NCBI GenBank assembly: GCA_030390025.1
Contig: CM059451.1
Span: 1,612,001 to 1,676,000, forward strand
DNA from: Squalus acanthias
Lineage: Eukaryota
Direction of reading: 5' to 3'
DNA length: 64,000 nt
Below the pieces are notes generated by a model, which saw only the letters and a list, made by a program, of their open reading frames with translations, was not told the DNA's origin and made no database searches. Shown here in pieces: positions 9,395 through 62,550 of the stretch. A program made the translations under genes and the position numbers. Each line of letters begins with the position of its first letter. The stretch's first letter is position 1.

Positions 9395-9572
9395 TCCTGT
9401 TTTTTGTACAATAGCAAAATACTGCGGATGCTGGAAATCTGAAATAACAACAGAAAATGCTGGAAACACTCAGCAGGCCAGGCAGCATCCGTGGAGAGAG
9501 AAACAGAGTTAACGTTTCAGGTCTGGGACCCTTCTTCAGAACTAGTCAGAACAGAAGGGTCTCCGACCTGAA
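9395..9572 (-). mobile_element. Penelope-like terminus with an intact hammerhead motif (9507-9543)
   Basis: Minus strand aguu-CUGAAGA-agggucccagaccu-GAAA-cg-UU-aacu; same terminus as the GIY-YIG-bearing copies at 49150 and 62450. Confidence 0.8.
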
Positions 9573-22389: not shown

Positions 22390-23100
22390 CATCTTCTTAG
22401 GCAGTCCCTCGGAACCGGGGATGACTTGCTTCCACACTAAAACTGAGTTCTCAGGTGACTGATGAGTCCAATGTGAGACCTACAGTCTCTGTCATAGGTG
22501 GGGCAGACGGTGGTTGAAGGGGCAGGTGGGTGGGGTGCTTGGGTTGACGTGCGCTCCTTCCGCTGTTTGCGCTTGGCTTCCGCTTGCTCCCGGCGAAGAG
22601 ACTCGAGGTGTTCGGCGCCTTCCCGGATGCTTCTCCTCCACTTCATGCGGTCTTGGGCCAGGGATTCCTAGGTGTCGGTGGGGATGTTGCGCTTTTTCAA
22701 GGAGGCTTTGAGGGTGTCCTTGAAGCGTTTCCTCTGCCCACCTGGGGCTCTCTTGCCGTGTCGCAGCTCCAAGTAGAGCGCTTGTTTTGGGAGTCTCATA
22801 TCGGGCATGCAGACGATATGGCCCGTCCATCGGAGCTCATCGAGCGTGGTCGAAGCTTCGATGCTGGGGATGTTGGCCTGAGCGAGAACACTGCTCTGTA
22901 GACCATGAGCTTGGTGCTGGGTTTGAGGTCTTGGTCTTCAAACACTCTCTTCCTCAGGCGACCGAAGGCTGCACTGGCACACTAAAGGCGGTGTTGGACT
23001 TCATCATCGACGCCTGCCCTTGTTGACAGTAGGCTCCCGAGGTATGGAAAGTGGTCCACATTGTCCAAGGCCTCGTCATGGATTTTGATAATCGGGGAGC
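22390..23100 (-). mobile_element. RTE-clade LINE fragment, internally deleted, inserted in a SINE
   Basis: Highly similar to the 5859-6386 copy; ORFs 22437..22646 and 22492..22830. Confidence 0.9.
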
Positions 23101-33400: not shown

Positions 33401-34448
33401 CCGATCCCCTCATTCTCTATTGTTCTCTGATTCAGGTTTAAGTTTGACCGAATCCATGGCTATATCGATTGGCTGGGCGTCACTGTGAGGGGCGTCACCT
33501 GCTCCCAGCTGGTCTATCTCTTTACATTCTTCCTCCTTATCCTTATCGCGATCTCCCTCCCTCTTCGGCTCGCACCTTACAGCTGTGTCATATTGGATGC
33601 CGATCTTTGCCCTTCTCCTTCTCTTAGGGTACAGTTTCACAGGAGCCAGGCACTCACTGGTATCTCGAGCCTATCCACTGAGGGGGTAACACTTCCATGC
33701 TCAGCACTCCCGGTGTGTGAAGACAACAACAGACGTAAGTGTCGGCCTCTTGGAGACGACACACATCCTCTGCCCTCACCCAACTTCAGACCTGAGACTC
33801 TCGCTGCTTTTCCCTTTTTTCTGATGTAAGGACAATGAAGACAATTTGTAGTACTCCTATCATCACTCTACCGAGTCCCAATGTGCTTCACAGCCAATGA
33901 AGTACTTTTGAAGTGTAGTCACTGTTGTAATGTGGGAAACGCGGCAGCCAATTTGTGCACAGCAAGCTCCCACAAACAGCAATGTGAAAATGACCAGATC
34001 ATCTGCTTCAGTGATGTTGATTGAGGGATAAATATTGGCCAGGACACCGGGGAGAACTCCCCTGCTCTTCTTTGAATAGTGCCATGGGATCTTTTATGTC
34101 CACCTGAGAGGGCAGACAGGGCCTTGGCTTAATGTCTCATCTAAAAGATGGTCAGTAGGAGGACCGAGAACCGGCCATGGTGGAGTCCCCTTGTGATCTC
34201 TCCACGGTGGCAACAGAAATCGGGTAAGTGCCCACGTTTGGAGCTGTAGGTGAGAGCCCAGGTCAACAGCACAGACACTCAAAAAACGTTGCACTCCTTG
34301 GAACTGTTTCATTTCAACAAAGGATATTCGTGCTAAGATGCTTCTTTTTAATTATGAGAAGTCGCACAACACCAGGTTATAGTCCAACAGCTTTATTTGA
34401 AATCACAAGCTCTCGGAGCGCTGCTCCTTCGTCAGGTGAAGTGGTCGT

Positions 34449-34744
34449 CAGTCGGTGTGTGCGTGCTGACGTCGGTCCCCTCAGTCGGTGTGTGCGTGCT
34501 GACGTCGGTCCCCTCAGTCGGTGTGTGCGTGCTGACGTCGGTCCCCTCAGTCGGTGTGTGCGTGCTGACGTCGGTCCCCTCAGTCGGTGTGTGCGTGCTG
34601 ACGTCGGTCCCCTCAGTCGGTGTGTGCGTGCTGACGTCGGTCCCCTCAGTCGGTGTGTGCGTGCTGACGTCGGTCCCCTCAGTCGGTGTGTGCGTGCTGA
34701 CGTCGGTCCCCTCAGTCGGTGTGTACGTGCTGACGTTGGCCCCT
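34449..34744. repeat. 33-bp tandem repeat, 9 copies
   Basis: Unit cagtcggtgtgtgcgtgctgacgtcggtcccct; 8 identical copies plus one variant; no spacers. Confidence 0.97.
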
Positions 34745-34749
34745 CAGAC

Positions 34750-34789
34750 TTCACCTGAGGAAGGGGCAGCAGCTCCGAAAGCTTGTGAT
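34750..34789 (+). ncRNA. Minimal type I hammerhead ribozyme motif (Penelope-associated)
   Basis: ucac-CUGAGGA-a-ggggc(agca)gcucc-GAAA-gc-UU-guga; stem I ucac/guga, palindromic AAGCUU in place of stem III. Confidence 0.65.
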
Positions 34790-34912
34790 TTCAAATAAAG
34801 CTGTTGGACTATAACCTGGTGTTGTGCGACTTCTCACATTTGTCCACCCCAGTCCAACACCGGCATCTCCACATCTTTTTAATTAAGCAGCAACTGTTTG
34901 TATTTCACGCAC

Positions 34913-35093
34913 CGTTCAAAAAGTTACGCTGCGTTTCCAGGATCTGGCTAACATTCGAAACCCAGGCCTGCCGGATTTCAGGATTGGTGGCTTGTAGGAC
35001 GTATCGCACCACATTCCCGTCTGTCCCACGTGAGGTCAAGGCAAATTTACAAGGGTCGTTGTCCACAGACTCTTCAAGGCCTAGGCAGCTAAC
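34913..35093 (-). CDS. ARHGEF25: ARHGEF25 PH-domain exon
   Basis: 181 nt, VSCLGLEESVDNDPCKFALTSRGTDGNVVRYVLQATNPEIRQAWVSNVSQILETQRNFLN(A); VSCLGLE and RYVLQA favour ARHGEF25 over TRIO/KALRN as recalled. Confidence 0.9.
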
Positions 35094-36489
35094 CTGAATT
35101 TAAAAAAGAGAGAGAAATATTCAATAAAGATCATTGCACAATTAGCACTTCTTTTAGTACACTGCTCTTGACCCTCCAAGACCTGGGGCTCTCTAATTAA
35201 TCCCACTCTCCATCTTTTTCCCTCTCGCCCTGCATTGTCTCCCCTGTAAGTATTTATCCAATTCCCTTTTGAAAGTTACTGTTGAATCTGCTGCCACCAG
35301 CCTTTCAGGCAGCGCGTTCCAGATCACAACAACTTGCTGCGTAAACAAATTCTCCTCATCTCCCCTCTGGTTCTTTTGCCAATCACCTTCAATCTGTGTC
35401 CTCTGGTTACTGACCCTCCTGCCACTGGAAACAGTTTCTCTTTATTTACTCTATCTAAACCCTTCATGATTTTGAACACCTCGATCAAATCTCCTCTTAA
35501 CCTTCTCTGCTCTAAGGAGAACAACCCCAGCTTAGCTAGTCTTTTTTTAAAATTTGTTCATGGGATGTGGGCGTCGCTGGCAAGGCCAGCATTTATTGCC
35601 CATCCCTAGTTGCCCTTGAGAAGGTGGTGGTGAGCCGTCTCTCCACGTAACTGAAGTCCCTCATCCCTGGTAAATCTCCTCTGCACCCTCTCCAAGGCCT
35701 TGACATCTTTCCTAAAGTGTGGTGCCCAGAATTGGACACCATACTCCAGCTGGGGCCAAACTAGTGTTTTATAAAGGTTGAGCATAACTTCCTGGCTTTT
35801 GTCCTCTCTGCCTCTATTAATAAAGCCAAGGATCCCATTTGCTTTTTAACAGCCTTCTCAACTTGTCCTGCCACCTTCAAAGATTTGTGTACATACACCC
35901 CCAGGTCTCTCTGTCCCTGCACCCCCTTTAAAATTGTACCATTTCGTTTATATTGCTTCTGCTCATTCTTCCTCCCAAATCAGGAGAAACCTTTTCAGAC
36001 AGAGGGTTGTGAGGCTGTGGAATTCACTACCAGAGTTAGTGATTGAAGCAGAGGCCGTGTCAACATTTAAGAATAGGTTTGAGAGGAGGTTGAAGGAAAG
36101 GAAGATAAAGGGATATGGGAACAGGGCGGGCACATGGGATTCAGAGTCATTCTCACTTGGAGGAGAAACACCAACACGGATTGGTTGGGCCGCTGATTTA
36201 TCTCTGGCGGCCGAACCGGTATAATTTGGATTAATCTACTCAGTTGATCTAACAAGGGCCCCAATCCCCAAGGGCCCCTTTGAATCATGATAGAATATCC
36301 TGAGCTGTTCCCATAATTGTGCTGTCTCCTGCCCTCCCCTGCAAGTTGAGGTACAATCTGCTTTTGGCACAGCTTGTCGAGGGTAGGTTTCCCAGTTTGC
36401 ACTACCAGAGTTGAATCTCGCCAGCTCGCCGTGCTTTATGGGTAATGGTGGGTGGCACGCCCTCGATTACCCTATACGCACGGTCACTG

Positions 36490-40056: not shown

Positions 40057-40330
40057 TGATGCGGAGATGCCAGTGTTGGACTGGGGTGGAAAAATGTGAG
40101 AAGTCGCACAACACCAGGTTATAGTCCAATAGCTTTATTTGAAATCACAAGCTTTCGGAGCGCTGCTCCTTCGTCAAGTGAAGTGAAGAGATGCATATAG
40201 GCACAGCATATATAGTCAGAGAACACTGCCAGATGATTATAGTTAATCTTTCCAACTGCCCTTTATCACACCTCGGCAGAGAGATAATCACGGCAATCAA
40301 AGGTGTGGATGGTGTCCAAACAGTTCAGTC
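40057..40330 (-). mobile_element. Penelope-like 3' terminus, second family
   Basis: Same pLTR and extension as the 34355 element; hammerhead core reads UUGACGA. Confidence 0.75.
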
Positions 40331-41754
40331 AGGAAAACATTTGTGGGAGGGAAGAGGTGACATTGTCCAACTTTCGACCTGATGATAAGAAGGCTCTGAC
40401 AAGTCAATCTAGCCTGGGGTCGCCAACTCTGACTGGACGTATTCCTGGAGGTTATATCACATGACCTCCCCCCCTCCATCCACCCTGCCCGGTCAAACAG
40501 CCTTTTTTCCCTCATCTCCAATACGGACATACAGGAAAAGACCAGCTGGTCCATCAAGCCTGCCCCACCTCATGATGGCCAGGGCAGCAAGACCAAAGAC
40601 TTCCCCCTTCCCACCCGCCACACCTCTCCTGGGAGAGGTGAAAAAACCCAGGGCCAATAAGGGAAAAAATACTCTGGAAAATTGATTCTCCTGAGGCAAT
40701 CAAGACCAGTCCAAATATTTTTATAACTAATAATTGAAAGTGTTCAAAAGAAAAAAAACACCATTTTTTAACGCCCCTATGATCTTTCCCAGGTTTGCTC
40801 GCAATTCCTGGAGACACCAGGGCAATCCCGGCGGGTTGGCAACCCGAATCTAGCCCCAAACTGTCTCTCCTGTCTGGCTGGAGCAGAATAAAAGAACTTG
40901 CATTCAAATAGCATTTTATCAAGTCCTCAGGAGATTGCAAAGCATTTCGTACCCAATTAATTGCTTTTGAGGTGTAGTCATTGGTGTTATGTCGCCAAGT
41001 CACACACCATCCTGACTTGGAAGTATATCGCCAATTCTTCATCGTCGCTGGGTCAAAATCCTGGAACTCCCTCCCTAACAGCACTGTGGAAGTACCTTCA
41101 CCACACGGACTGCAGCGGTTCAAGAAGGCAGCTCACCACCACCTTCTCAAGGGCAATTAGGGATGGGCAATAAATGCTGGCCTTGCCAGCGACACCCACA
41201 TCCCACAAACGAATAAAAAAAAATGCTGCAGCCAATTTGCACACAGCAAGGTCCCACAAACAGAAATGGGAAAAATGACTAGTTAATCTGTTTTGACGGT
41301 GAGGATTAAGGAATGAATGTAGGCCAGGACCCCCTGCTGTTCTTCTACTAGCACCGTGGGATCTTTTACACCCACCTAATCAGGCAGACAGGGCCTCGGT
41401 TTAACGTCTCATCCAAAAGAGGGCACCGCTGACAGTGCTGCGCTCCCTCAATACTGCTCTGAAGTGTCAGCCTGGATTGCACGATTAAGTCCTCGAGTGA
41501 GACTCGAGCTCGCCATCTCCTGACTCATGAGCAAGCAAGAGCGCTACCACTGAACCAAGTTGACACGCCTGCCTGAGAGATGAGAAAATGGAGGCCGGGC
41601 TTTTCTGCTTCTGTGTTTAGCGGCCTTCAATTTTATGACCATTCGTGAACTCACAGAAAACCACGAGCTGGCGTGTGCAGAGGTGGAAGAAGACGGCCAG
41701 AATTGTAGGTCGAACACAAAAACAAAAGGGAAAGCTGATCCACACAGTCATTAC

Positions 41755-42989: not shown

Positions 42990-45870
42990 TCATGTCCGCT
43001 CACCGTAACCCCTAATTCCCTTTACCTCTAGGAAACTATCTATTTCTGTTTTAAATTTATTTAATGATGTAGCTTCCACAGCTTCCTGGGGCAGCAAATT
43101 CCACAGACCTACTACCCTCTGAGTGAAGAAGTTTCTCCTCATCTCAGTTTTGAAAGAGTAGCCCCTTATTCTAAGATTATGCCCCCTAGTTCTAGTTTCA
43201 CCCATCCTTGGGAACATCCTTACCGCATCCACCCGATCAAGCCCCTTCACAATCTTATATGTTTCAATAAGATCGCCTCTCATTCTTCTGAACTCCAATG
43301 AGTAGAGTCCCAATCTACTCAACCTCTCCTCATATGTCCACCCCCTCATCCCCGGGATTAACCGAGTGAACCTTCTTTGTACTGCCTCGAGAGCAAGTAT
43401 GTCTTTTCTTAAGTATGGACACCAAAACTGTACGCAGTATTCCAGGTGCGGTCTCACCAATACCTTATATAACTGCAGCAATACCTCCCTGTTTTTATAA
43501 TCTATCCCCCTAGCAATAAAAGCCAACATTCCGTTGGCCTTCTTGATCACCTGCTGCACCTGCATACTAACTTTTTGATTTTCTTGCACTAGGACCCCCA
43601 GATCCCTTTGTACTGCAGTACTTTCCAGTTTCTCGCCATTAAGATAATAACTTGCTCTCTGATTTTTCCTGCCAAAGTGCATAACCTCACATTTTCCAAT
43701 ATTGTATTGCATCTGCCAAATCTCCGCCCACTCACCCAGCCTGTCTATATCCCCTTGTAGGTTTTTTATGTCCTCCTCACTTTCTACTTTCCCTCCCATC
43801 TTTGTATCATCTGCAAACTTTGATATGTTACACTCGGTCCCCTCCTCCAAATCGTTAATATAGATTGTAAAGAGTTGGGGACCCAGCACCGACCCCTGCT
43901 GAACACCACTGGCTACTGGTTGCCAGTCCGAGAATGAACCATTTATCCCAACTCTCTGCTTCCTGTTAGATAACCAATCCTCCACCCATGCCAGAATATT
44001 ACCCCCAATCCAGTGATTTTTTATCTTGAGCAATAATCTTTCATGTGGCACCTTGTCGAATGCCTTCTGGAAGTCTAAATACACTACGTCCACTGGTTCC
44101 CCTTTATCCACCCTGTATGTTATGTCCTCAAAGAACTCAAGCAAATTTGTCAGACATGACTTCCCCTTCATAAAGCCATGCTGACTTTGTCCTATTAAAT
44201 TATGTTTATCTAAATGTTCCGTTACTGTCTCCTTAATAATAGACTCCACAATTTTACCCACCACAGATGTTAGGCTAACTGGTCTATAATTTCCAGCCTT
44301 CTGCCTACTACCCTTTTTAAATAAGGGTGTTACATTAGCAGTTTTCCAATCTGCCGGGACCTTTGCTGAGTCCAGGGAATTTTGGAAAATTATTACCAAA
44401 GCATCCACAATCCTTACTGCCACTTCCCTCAAGACCCTAGGATGTAAGCCATCAGGTCCAGGGGATTTATCCGCCTTGAGTCCCATTATTTTACTGAGTA
44501 CCAATTCCTTAGTGATTTTAATCGTATTTAGCTCCTCCCCCCCAGAGCCCCCTGTTTGTCCAGTGTTGGGATATTCTTAGTGTCCTCTACCGTAAAGACT
44601 GAAACAAAATATTTGTTCAGCATTTTTGCCATCTCCATGTTTCCCACCATTAATTTCCCGGTCTCATCCTCTAAGGGACCTACGTTTGCCTTAGCCACCC
44701 TTTTTCTTTTTATATAACCATAGAAACTCTTGCTATCTGTTTTTATATTTTTTGCTAATTTATTTTCATAATCTATCTTCCCTTTCTTAATCAATCCTTT
44801 AGTTACTTTTTGCTGTCTTTTGAAGACTTCCCTATCTTCTATCCTCCCACTAAGTTTGGCTACCTTATATGTCCTTGTTTTTAGTCGGATACTATCCTTA
44901 ATTTCTTTACTTAGCCACGGATGGCTGTCATTTCTTTTACACCCTTTTTTCCTCAGTGGAATATATTTCTTTTGAAAGTTGTAAAATAACTCCTTAAATG
45001 AACACCACTGCTGATGTACCGTCTTACCCTTTAATCTATTTTCCCAGTCCACTTTAATCAATTCCGCTCTCATACCATCATAGTCTCCTTTATTCAAGCT
45101 CAGTACGCTTGTTTGAGAACCAACCGTCTCACTCTCTAATTGGATATGGAATTCAACCATGTTATGGTCACTCATTCCAAGGGGATCCTTAACTAGGACA
45201 TTATTAATTAATCCTGACTCATTACACAGGACCAGGTCCAAGGTTGCTTGCCCCCTTGTAGGATCAGTTACATACTGCTCAAGAAATCCATCCCTAATAC
45301 ACTCAATAAACTCTTCCTCAAGGCTGCCCTGCCCAATTTGATTTGTCCAGTTAATATGATAGTTAAAATCCCCCATAATTATAGCTGTTCCCTTATTACA
45401 TGCCCCAACTATTTCCTGATTAATACTTCTTCCAGCAGAGTTGCAACTATTAGGAGGCCTATATACTACTCCCACTAGTGTTTTTTCCCCTTATTATTCC
45501 TTATCTCCACCCAAACTGTTTCATTATCCTGATCCTTTGACCCAATATCATTTCTCTGTATTACAGTGATTCCTTCCTTTATTAACATAGCCACCCCACC
45601 TCCCCTTCTTTCCTGCCTGTCCTTCCTGATTGTTAAATACCCTGGCATATTTAGTTCCCAGTCGTTGTCACCCTGCAGCCATGTTTCTGTGATGGCCACA
45701 AGATCATACCCATACGTAATTATTTGTGCCGTTAACTCGTCCATTTTGTTACGAATGCTACGTGCATTCAGATAAAGAACTTTCAAATATGTTTTGTGAC
45801 ACTTAGTTCCTGCTTTTTCCTTTTTTAACACTTTACCTTTTACTCCATACCTTCTGTCCCTTCCTGACAC
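42990..45870 (-). pseudogene. CR1 ORF2 (AP endonuclease plus reverse transcriptase), split by two frameshifts
   Basis: ORFs 45475-45870 (YLNARS, ITETWL), 44528-45475 (MGDFN, SDHN) and 42990-44504 (KSPGPDG, YLDFQKAFD, QGSVLGP, FADD); breaks lie at homopolymer runs near 45480 and 44535. Confidence 0.92.
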
Positions 45871-45914
45871 GCTTTCCTCTGTCTCCCTGCTCAGGTGCCC
45901 AACCCCCTGCCACT

Positions 45915-46865
45915 TCAGTTTAAACCCTCCCCAACAGCACTAGCAAACACTCCCCCTAGGACAGCGGTCCCGGCCCTGCCCAGGTGCAGACCGTCCGGTT
46001 TGTACTGGTCCCACCTCCCCCAGAACCGGTTCCAATGTCCCAGGAATTTGAATCCCTCCCCCTTGAACCATTCCTCTAGCCACGTATTCATTTGAAATAT
46101 CCTCCTATTTCTACTCTGACTAGCATGTGGCACTGGTAGCAATCCTGAGATTACTACCTTTGAGCTCCTATTTTTTAATTTACCTCCTAACTCCCTATAT
46201 TCTGCTTTTAGGACCTCATCCCCTTTTTTACCTATATCGTTGGTGCCTATGTGCACCACGACAGCTGGCTGTTCGCCCTCCCCCTCCAAAATGTTCTGTA
46301 GCCGCTCCGAGACGTCCTTGACCCTTGCACCAGGGAGGCAACACACCATCCTGGAGTCTCGGTTGCGGCCGCAGAAACGCCTATCTATTCCCCTTACAAT
46401 TGAGTCCCCTATCACTATAGCTCTTCCACTCTTTTTCCTCCCAGCCTGTGCAGCAGAGCCACCCATGGTGCCAGGAAGTTGGCTGCTGCTGCCTTCCCCT
46501 GATAAGTCATCCCCCCCAACAGTATTCAAAGTGGTATATCTGTTTGAGAGGGGGATGTCCACAGGGGACCCCTGCACTACCTGCCTGCACCTCTTACTCT
46601 GCCTGGTGGTCACCCATTTACTTCCTGCCTGTACACCCTTTGCCTGCGGTGTGACCAACTCGCTAAACGTGCTATTCACGAGGTTCTCAGCATCGCGAAT
46701 GCTCCAATACGCATCCAATCGCAGCTCCAGCGCCGTAATGCAGTCTGCCAGTAGCTGTAGCTGGATACACTTCCTGCACACATGGTTGTCAAGGACACCG
46801 GAAGGGTCCCTGATTTCCCACATAGCACAGGAGGAGCATACCACGGGGCCGAGCACTCCTGCCAT
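45915..46865 (-). CDS. CR1 ORF1 protein (Cys-rich zinc-finger/coiled coil plus SGNH esterase-like domain)
   Basis: Open 316-aa ORF with CSSC...CRKC, IVIGDSIVR, CLPGARV, HIGTND and DGLHL motifs typical of CR1 ORF1 esterases. Confidence 0.9.
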   Translation of the reverse strand: MAGVLGPVVCSSCAMWEIRDPSGVLDNHVCRKCIQLQLLADCITALELRLDAYWSIRDAENLVNSTFSELVTPQAKGVQAGSKWVTTRQSKRCRQVVQGSPVDIPLSNRYTTLNTVGGDDLSGEGSSSQLPGTMGGSAAQAGRKKSGRAIVIGDSIVRGIDRRFCGRNRDSRMVCCLPGARVKDVSERLQNILEGEGEQPAVVVHIGTNDIGKKGDEVLKAEYRELGGKLKNRSSKVVISGLLPVPHASQSRNRRIFQMNTWLEEWFKGEGFKFLGHWNRFWGRWDQYKPDGLHLGRAGTAVLGGVFASAVGEGLN

Positions 46866-47844
46866 GACTTACCCTTTAATTAATTCAAATTAAATTAAAA
46901 CAAATCAATCCCACCAATTGCGCTACAGTTAAATGATATACTTAAGGGCCCTGGTTTACCAACAGTCCCCGCTACACCACAGAGAGCTTAGAAACTATAA
47001 ACCACAGAGTTTAAGTTTAAAAAGAGAGAAATACTCACCAACCAATCACTTACCTGCTTTCTGGTGACGTCACACTTCGATTACTTTTTACTTCTCTAAT
47101 TATCGCCTCCGACTGCAAAATTCGCCTCTATCGCCCCTGGAGGTGATTGGAGCGCTAAATCAGGCGCTACACCCCTCTCTTAAGGCACAAACGTCAGGGA
47201 GTGAGGCGCTACCTCAGAACGCTACCGAAGCTCAGACGATGTCCGTTACCATGGAAGCCAGACACACTGGCGCCGTCCAGTTCTTAAAGGGGAGGGGCCA
47301 TCTTGCTGGCCAGCCACACCCTGCTCATTGCAGCCTTGAATCTCGGCCTGGAGAGACCTCGAAAGCAATTGTGTTGGAAGCACTAATGGATAGGCCCAGG
47401 GAAAGAGCTCGGCACTTAGGAACCTCAAAAGTGGTGCTGAGTGCCAAAACTCCTTAGGACAGCGTTAAAACCAAAAATCTTGCCGGCAGGAAGTGCCCGC
47501 CTTTAAATAGTGCTCCCCCAGCCCCTTCCCGACTTGAAAACATTACCCTCTACCTGTTGTTCCTAGCGGAAGGCGCTAAGGCAGGGGGCGCGACTCAATA
47601 TCCGGTCCGGGACGTTGCACGCTTGACTGACGTCACGATCTGCGGGCGCAGGAGACCGTGGCGGTAGTGTTTAGCGCCGCCGAAAAACGACTGGTCAATT
47701 TCGCGAGCGCCGCTAAAATCGGCGCGCTCGGGCGCTAAGTTCCTAGCGCCACCCCAGAGGCGCTAACGGGAGGCGCTAACCAACCAAATTTTTCCCCCCT
47801 ACAGTCTCCGTCTAATGAGGAAAGGAAATGAAACCAAGACTTAC

Positions 47845-54810: not shown

Positions 54811-54900
54811 TTCAAAGTAGGTGTCGATGTACTCGGAGACGATATGCTCTGACTTAGGTTTATTCTGGCAATAAACCACGTACATGTGTAACCGTCTTTC
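54811..54900 (-). CDS. ARHGEF25: Rho guanine nucleotide exchange factor 25 (p63RhoGEF), DH-domain exon
   Basis: AG/GT bounded, 90 nt, [30 protein letters not shown], typical Trio-GEF2/Kalirin/ARHGEF25 DH sequence. Confidence 0.9.
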
Positions 54901-61914: not shown

Positions 61915-62550
61915 CTCCCCTCTTCCCACTGTCCAGGGCCCCAGACACTCCTTCCAGGTGAAACAGCGATTCACTTGTACTTCTTGCAATTAATATACTG
62001 TATTCGCTGCTCACGATGCGGTCTCCTCTACATTGGGGAGACCAAACGCAGATTGGGTGACCGCTTTGCGGAACACCTCCGTTCAGTCCGTAAGGGTGAC
62101 CCCGAGCTTCCGGTCGCTTGTCACTTTAATTCTCCGCTCCACTCCCACTCTGACCTCTCCGTCCTCGGCATCTTACACTGTTCCAATGAAGCTCAAGGAA
62201 CAGCACCTCATCTTTCGATTAGGCACTTTACAGCCTTCTGGACTCAACATTGAGTTCAACAATTTCAGACTATAACCTCTGCCCCCATTCTTCAGGTGGC
62301 AGCTGTTGATTATTCTGCCATCCCCATTTGCAACATTTAATCTCTCCTGAGTTCAATCCTAGCACAGACTGTTCCTTTAGTTCCTTCCTCCCCTCCTCCC
62401 TCTCCCTGCCCCTACACTTGCTTAAAACCTGTTACATCTCTAACTTTTTCCAGTTCTGACGAAGGGTCACAGACCTGAAACGTTAACGCTGTTTCTCTCT
62501 CCACGGATGCTGCCTGACCTGCTGAGTGCTTCCAGCATTTTCTGTTGTTA
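61915..62550 (+). mobile_element. 5'-truncated Penelope-like element (GIY-YIG plus pLTR with hammerhead at 62452-62487)
   Basis: LIYCIRCSRCGLLYIGETKRRLGDRFAEH; near-identical to the 48683 copy; CUGACGA...GAAACGUU core intact. Confidence 0.92.

Follow-up and report, generated by a model that had tools for sequence, protein, structure and literature searches.

Layout of the insertion

The window analysed here is the whole stretch of 64,000 nt from Squalus acanthias (GCA_030390025.1, CM059451.1:1,612,001-1,676,000, forward strand), which is without any N, and all positions given below are positions within it. Exons of ARHGEF25 are found on its minus strand near 54900, 54155, 47895, 41931, 35093-34928 and 30430; from these positions, both the insertion described here and a second copy of its terminus (copy 2) are intronic. 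The features of the insertion and of the neighbouring exon are as follows.

34343..34354, no strand: left TSD, 12 bp, 11/12 A/T
34355..34442, minus strand: left arm, 88 bp, PLE leader +1 to +88, ending at the presumed inner RT start site, no tail
34403..34439, minus strand: minimal type I hammerhead of the left arm, GAAA box of the core changed, sense in the ARHGEF25 pre-mRNA
34443..34453, plus strand: degenerate partial repeat at the left junction, 11 nt, of which 7 nt directly repeat the end of the left arm (p 0.017)
34454..34717, plus strand: eight identical 33-bp units, 67% GC, 4 CpG each, phase set by the leader match
34718..34747, plus strand: last unit, variant and truncated to 30 nt, adjoining the right arm
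34748..34836, plus strand: right arm, 89 bp, PLE leader +1 to +89
34751..34788, plus strand: right-arm minimal type I hammerhead with intact core, antisense to the host gene
34818..34854, plus strand: leader +71 to +107, running from the arm into the tail; the 33-mer aligns here
34837..34873, plus strand: tail, 37 bp, at the right end only, 70% A+C, common to copy 2
34874..34885, no strand: right TSD, 12 bp, matching the left TSD 12/12
34928..35093, minus strand: ARHGEF25 PH-domain exon, best match PDB 2rgn_B (E 1.1e-18; Trio 1.8e-14)

The word forming the TSD is restricted to these two flanks on both strands of the window. The inverted arms (88 and 89 bp) share 95.5% identity, with four differing columns (three substitutions and one extra base); all four lie inside the hammerhead and the outer 58 bp of the arms are identical. 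Beyond the 37-bp tail, two native bases overlap the right TSD. The arms enclose a filler of 305 bp with eight identical 33-mers, a ninth variant and no ORF. A first-pass annotation had described the 12-bp duplication, the inverted arms of about 88 bp with hammerhead-like cores, the 37-bp one-sided extension and the array between the arms, and each of these was recovered, with both arms matched by a minimal-hammerhead descriptor. It had also placed the insertion about 40 bp from an ARHGEF25 splice donor; the donor G of the exon is at 34927, 42 nt from the end of the TSD, and ARHGEF25 is the best match of this exon.

An ARHGEF25 intron also houses a long LINE (42990-46868, minus strand), whose ORF1 and frameshifted ORF2 (endonuclease/RT) are spread over four long frames. 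From its appearance it may be CR1-like.

Minimal hammerheads and predicted RNA folding

Hammerheads were searched with a descriptor of the minimal type I form, in a strict and a relaxed version, and 100 simulated windows served as the control. The descriptor identified five sites in the window: one in each arm, one in copy 2 (40181) and two, at 9543 and 62452, that belong to another family. The strict version gave three matches in the real window and none in the 100 simulated windows; the relaxed version gave five in the single real window and five in total over the 100 simulated ones. Against Rfam, nothing in the window reached gathering level, and within 34000-35200 no hammerhead appeared at E<=10; the minimal hammerhead form is outside the Rfam models. 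The descriptor matches agree with the earlier reading that the right core is intact and the GAAA box of the left core is changed. The three changes private to the right arm spare the hammerhead core and keep stem II paired.

Each arm has one private hammerhead change, at 34409 and 34765 respectively, that reads as A to G in the RNA sense. These could be traces of RNA editing acting on the templates, or have no such meaning. Within this family, the two hammerheads in sense orientation to the ARHGEF25 pre-mRNA (34403-34439 and 40145-40181, both on the minus strand) each have a changed core, and the antisense one (34751-34788, plus strand) is intact; the joint p for this pattern is about 0.02, a post hoc value with n=3. 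The core changes possibly reflect selection against intronic cleavage. The sites at 9506-9543 (minus strand) and 62452-62489 (plus strand) form a second minimal-hammerhead family; their cores are intact, their downstream sequences are alike, and they are probably the termini of another PLE family.

The element is predicted to fold by arm pairing at -241 kcal/mol in the sense of the pre-mRNA (minus strand); on the plus strand the predicted value is -292 kcal/mol. In the predicted fold of the pre-mRNA, six of the seven core bases of the sense hammerhead are paired. The long RNA hairpin suggested earlier is thus predicted, with the hammerhead core buried in it. The insertion should not self-cleave or circularise; it encodes nothing, and a long intronic RNA hairpin is likely to be its sole effect.

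The second copy and the shared inner end of the arms

Copy 2 lies on the minus strand and consists of two parts.

40057..40184, minus strand: leader and tail, with 94% identity to the right end and a change at position 3 of the hammerhead
40185..40340, minus strand: upstream part with a provisional outer limit, a TATA-like box at 40214-40207, a 20-bp gap and an Inr-like word from 40186

Neither an inverted partner nor a TSD was found for copy 2, and nhmmer returned no further family member in the window with E below 0.9. The first reading of copy 2 as a terminus with a different interior holds in so far as this interior differs from the array, but the upstream part is probably the native promoter part of a pLTR rather than alternative cargo.

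Similarity to copy 2 breaks off in the two arms at points no more than one base apart, 7 nt upstream of the hammerhead core. The copy 2 base at this shared end is an A within the Inr-like word, with the TATA-like box at exactly -30; such a box and word occur together at 9 of the 34104 A positions in the window. A TATA-Inr gap of 20 bp is also reported for the Adineta Pen2a pLTR (PMC3846280). At the outer ends, the tail stops 111–113 nt after stem II begins and the short arm at 74 nt, and the geometry is such that each arm reads as an antisense cDNA extended from the 3' end of one TSD strand. Given the shared inner end at the Inr-like base, the arms look like two full run-off cDNAs, made on opposite strands from two RT start sites. 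The left arm would have been primed on the top strand, a role suggested by analogy with the system described in PMC11167929, and the right arm presumably on the bottom strand. The putative transcript start derives from one reference copy and from motifs noticed post hoc, and the TATA-less internal promoter reported for the D. virilis Penelope (PMC2377424) counts against it.

Two other causes of the shared inner end were rejected. Hammerhead cleavage would occur 3' of the core, whereas the arms end 5' of it, and a PLE intron acceptor is contradicted by copy 2, which has no AG at this position. The differences between the arms cluster in the hammerhead (p 0.034); this clustering and the core-sparing changes of the right arm suggest that two template RNAs were used.

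The proposed Penelope derivation is supported by the inverted termini, the tail, the minimal hammerheads, the TATA/Inr combination and the AT-rich TSD, although the termini could not be connected with any RT or GIY-YIG gene. No parent ORF encoding a PLE RT with GIY-YIG was found in the window. Protein searches with translations of the termini gave nothing relevant, their one match being an unrelated repeat protein. Inverted 5' copies with a 30–40-bp tail at one end are described as standard for PLEs (PMC8557442, PMC8969392).

The 33-bp array

TRF reports a period of 33 with 9.1 copies at 34448-34747, the sole long-period array among its six rows for the window. In the phase of the leader, the filler consists of an 11-nt degenerate partial repeat, eight identical units and a 30-nt variant; this ninth unit differs from the other eight by two substitutions and a 1-nt deletion. 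Weak echoes of the cDNA ends are seen at the junctions (direct over 7 nt, p 0.017; inverted over 6 nt, p 0.069). The array has the characteristics of a minisatellite/VNTR, with GC-rich units in the 10–60-bp range that are homogeneous inside and degenerate at both edges. Degenerate edges on both sides are typical of minisatellites expanded by slippage. Minisatellites derived from TEs are described as common in a review (PMC9659126).

The eight units show no changes, against 6.0 expected if the four arm differences are taken as a measure of age (P 0.003). Thus, unless homogenisation of the array took place later, the two arms must have been unlike at the outset. If the arms were copied from different templates, this age argument for a later expansion lapses and the degenerate edges alone remain. 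We prefer later expansion on account of the degenerate edges, the deviant first-copied unit and a leader without an A-B-A' repeat.

The 33-mer was not found at any other place in the 64-kb window. The open frames of the array (137–176 aa) were rejected as coding, since they are a by-product of the 33-bp period, and a protein search with the array frame gave two weak unrelated matches among the top 8000 candidates. Derivation of the unit from the hammerhead core by degeneration was rejected, 62–104 of 200 shuffles being as good with hammerhead-only targets and 38–101 of 200 with the left arm. An exact local templated insertion was likewise rejected: the longest match in the window is 11 nt, and 91 of 200 shuffles gave one as long. 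Within the arms, the longest exact match is 6 nt (1681 of 2000 shuffles as long). Plasmid and phage searches gave no significant match that would point to vector or phage DNA as the source (best E 0.6-2). The exact 33-mer had no match in GTDB, and the search for a prokaryotic source returned one weak GC-rich locus (21/25 nt), which is not significant. These searches, like those with the termini, are of low power for non-coding vertebrate DNA.

On the plus strand, the unit (34454-34477) is self-complementary through G-U pairs, and the array RNA folds on itself on that strand. The G at 34747, preceding the putative +1 of the right arm, is absent from the native sequence of copy 2 and is also the last base of the repeat unit. 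It is compatible with cap copying by the RT, a behaviour known for L1.

Resemblance of the repeat unit to the leader

The whole 33-mer aligns with leader +71..+107 collinearly and in the same sense, with 27 of 37 columns identical, six mismatches and four gap columns. The fit was assessed by forcing the whole unit to align under five scorings, with shuffles of the unit, shuffles of the leader and 982 genomic windows as controls. Scores as high as the real one were reached by 1, 0, 0, 0 and 1 of 1000 unit shuffles, by 2, 1, 1, 1 and 0 of 1000 leader shuffles, and by 0, 0, 0, 1 and 0 of the 982 windows. In local mode, the corresponding numbers were 20, 0 and 0 of 1000 shuffles and 7, 1 and 1 of 492 windows, the strict local scoring being the weakest. 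The leader of copy 2 also fits the 33-mer, slightly worse. The match went unreported in both directions by nhmmer over the whole window at E<=50, so that its significance holds only with the leader as the chosen target. It is also post hoc, having been met while the idea of a hammerhead copy was being tested, and five targets were tried. On these alignment statistics, we lean towards regarding the match as real.

The unit is richer than the leader segment in GC (67% vs 54%) and in CpG (4 vs 1). No simple process accounts for six substitutions, four gaps and a rise from one CpG to four beside arms that are at least 95% identical.

The best other match of the 33-mer in the window is at 22951-22983 (minus strand; 28–30 nt, E 11), and the genomic window at 22913 equals the leader in local mode; we treat this match as chance. 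Near the RT start, the leader (34802-34861) can form either of two mutually exclusive stems of 7–9 bp, +55-63/+104-112 or +71-77/+108-114, although the fold of the leader as a whole is unremarkable (z 0.11). The first 7 nt of the matched segment can pair with the 7 nt just after it. At the boundary of the segment, the present leader has no direct repeat with a period of 37; for periods of 33–39, repeats reach no more than 2 nt.

Origin of the insertion

The reading that we favour, at roughly even chances, is a dead-on-arrival PLE insertion composed of two leader-only cDNAs, whose junction filler later became a minisatellite. The geometry suggests that a PLE protein acting in trans would have nicked both strands of an AT-rich site in the intron, 12 nt apart. 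Each 3' end would then have primed reverse transcription, one at the end of the tail and the other 37 nt further in, a step with two independent supports in the sequence. Both cDNAs would have reached the 5' end of the transcript, resulting in inverted arms that carry a tail on one side only and both stop at the initiator. Twin priming of L1 likewise results in inversion by priming on both strands. The joining of the cDNA ends is the most tentative step. It may have proceeded via a short filler copied from a leader-like sequence spanning the arm/tail junction, for which either a related RNA or error-prone repair could have been responsible; the cDNA ends would have served as template for a few bases at the junction, as with the snap-back sequence and additional templates described at R2 5' junctions (PMC11371274). 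Finally, a single 33-bp unit, situated in the loop that the inverted repeat forms, could have expanded afterwards by slippage or unequal exchange, which would leave inner units all alike and edges degenerate. The result would look no different if a full-length insertion had later been shortened by recombination between direct pLTRs.

The filler of such a double-primed insertion could instead be unrelated to the element, consisting of captured RNA or DNA or of untemplated repair sequence that later underwent ordinary minisatellite expansion, with its likeness to the leader due to chance. Unrelated sequence between solo pLTRs with TSDs has been reported (PMC3846280), and R2 insertions are reported to gain additional templates and snap-back sequence at their 5' junctions (PMC11371274). 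No exact match of the unit exceeds chance, and the genomic window at 22913 scores as high as the leader in local mode. We nevertheless consider this origin unlikely, as the unit fits the leader collinearly, in the sense orientation and across the RT-start junction, better than 981–982 of 982 windows, and the searches of the window, plasmids, phages and GTDB yielded no alternative source.

A non-autonomous family that spreads the minisatellite is rather unlikely. Here, a master locus arranged as leader, array, and leader plus tail would be transcribed and mobilised in trans, with twin priming on one RNA. The available reports indicate that pLTRs suffice to mobilise cargo in trans (PMC3846280) and that non-autonomous PLE derivatives exist (PMC8557442; bioRxiv 10.64898/2026.07.22.740005), and a source locus with a drifted repeat would account for the divergence of the unit from the leader. 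Against this, the arrangement occurs once in 64 kb, copy 2 is without the array, and no trace was found elsewhere at the protein level, where searches are weak for non-coding animal DNA. Since the first base of the right arm coincides exactly with the putative transcript start, an earlier run-off event would be needed even for such a family.

Telomerase-like reiterative copying, as proposed in the first-pass annotation, is also unlikely, even though one part of the proposal gained ground in that the unit resembles the RT-initiation region of the element. Having finished the leader, the PLE RT would have switched to a leader-like RNA at its initiation loop and copied the same stretch of 33 nt from it some nine times. 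The orientation fits continued cDNA synthesis on a sense RNA, the RT start site falls within the matched segment, whose first 7 nt can pair with the 7 nt that follow the segment, eight units are identical, and PLE RTs are reported to group with TERT and DRT10 (PMC12632851). However, the leader, whose fold is unremarkable (z 0.11), lacks the A-B-A' realignment repeat that DRT10 and telomerase are reported to require (none at period 37; PMC12632851). Reiteration on one template should also give a first unit like the others, whereas the first-copied unit has three changes and the last partial one is degenerate. The template would have to be an unseen RNA, other than that behind the arms, and the in vitro study of a PLE, in the passages covered, reports no concatemers (PMC11167929).

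It is highly improbable that the array, or its copy number or perfection, was made by assembly or polishing at the inverted repeat: inverted PLE structures are reported to trouble assemblies (PMC8557442) and polishing can erase differences between units, but the TSD is perfect, the junctions are coherent, the edge units are distinct, the window contains no N and there is no vector or phage match (best E 0.6-2).

The insertion bears on the formation of inverted ends by PLEs and on how their integration is completed. Should both arms prove to be full run-offs, leader-only pairs would be minimal natural records of two-strand priming, and the inner ends of arms should peak at the initiator genome-wide. 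If the repeat descends from the initiation loop, the birth of a minisatellite, and possibly repeat addition, would be tied to the telomerase-related class of RTs, a descent that is testable in the existing in vitro system. Repeat addition, if true, would amount to telomerase/DRT-like processive synthesis by a eukaryotic transposon on a template much longer than that of telomerase. It would provide a route for minisatellites that are born full-grown, and the array would be a genomic fossil of such synthesis by a Penelope RT. If the likeness of unit and leader is due to chance, the locus is an ordinary truncated PLE insertion containing a VNTR.

Comparison with known systems

The overall layout is not new, as judged from reports on PLEs, Schistosoma and Adineta. 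What is added to it are arms that end within one base of each other at a putative initiator and a 33-mer that resembles the arm/tail junction. Literature searches of titles and abstracts, with subscription papers and Repbase outside their scope, returned no minisatellite at a PLE cDNA-cDNA junction, no leader-derived array between inverted pLTRs and no arms ending at the initiator.

Penelope/Poseidon and Neptune insertions, as reported (PMC8557442, PMC3846280), share with the present one the head-to-head termini, the 30–40-bp tail, the TSD, the TATA and Inr motifs 20 bp apart and non-coding cargo. In Adineta, unrelated non-coding sequence is described between solo pLTRs with TSDs (PMC3846280); these are 8–10 bp, compared to 12 bp here. 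The present insertion differs in having no ORF, in that both arms end at the same inner base, and in its cargo, which is a perfect tandem array resembling the leader. Pairs of minimal hammerheads on opposite strands, 100–700 bp apart, are reported from Schistosoma, where single minimal motifs did not cleave (PMC4209133). Spacing and orientation are alike here, as are the 5-bp helix II, the 4-bp helix I and the palindromic helix III.

PAc, a purified Poseidon protein from Anolis, is reported to nick and extend both strands of AT-rich DNA, starting at two internal sites that bound the tail and lie in an A/C-rich loop, 111–118 nt after the start of stem II (PMC11167929). The insertion likewise shows two putative RT starts bounding the tail, an A/C-rich start region about 111 nt from stem II, apparent extension of both strands and an AT-rich target. 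The ORF of PAc starts at stem II, whereas all three sense frames stop within the arm here. For PAc, neither joining of two cDNA ends nor repeat synthesis is reported.

The first-pass suggestion of a retrozyme-like family did not survive. Non-LTR retrozymes (PMC7229834; bioRxiv 10.64898/2026.07.22.740005) are similar in being non-coding, PLE-related and tandemly repeated and in having a TSD. However, their reported units of 51–972 bp each carry a type I hammerhead in tandem, whereas the 33-bp unit has none and the two hammerheads of the insertion are inverted, on opposite strands. Retrozyme membership thus fails, with no hammerhead per tandem unit and no two hammerheads in the same sense on one RNA.

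Telomerase, DRT10 and DRT2 (PMC12632851, PMC12039810) resemble the present case in producing tandem copies of a segment like an RNA loop bound by the RT. Repeat synthesis by telomerase and DRT10 is reported to require the A-B-A' pattern (PMC12632851, PMC12039810), and DRT10 failed with a 20-nt spacer (PMC12632851). In contrast, the present leader has no A-B-A', the unit is not an exact copy of a known template and the edges of the array are degenerate. Minisatellites derived from TEs, as reviewed in PMC9659126, also offer a parallel: in both cases a minisatellite is born inside a retroelement, here apparently at the junction of two PLE cDNAs.
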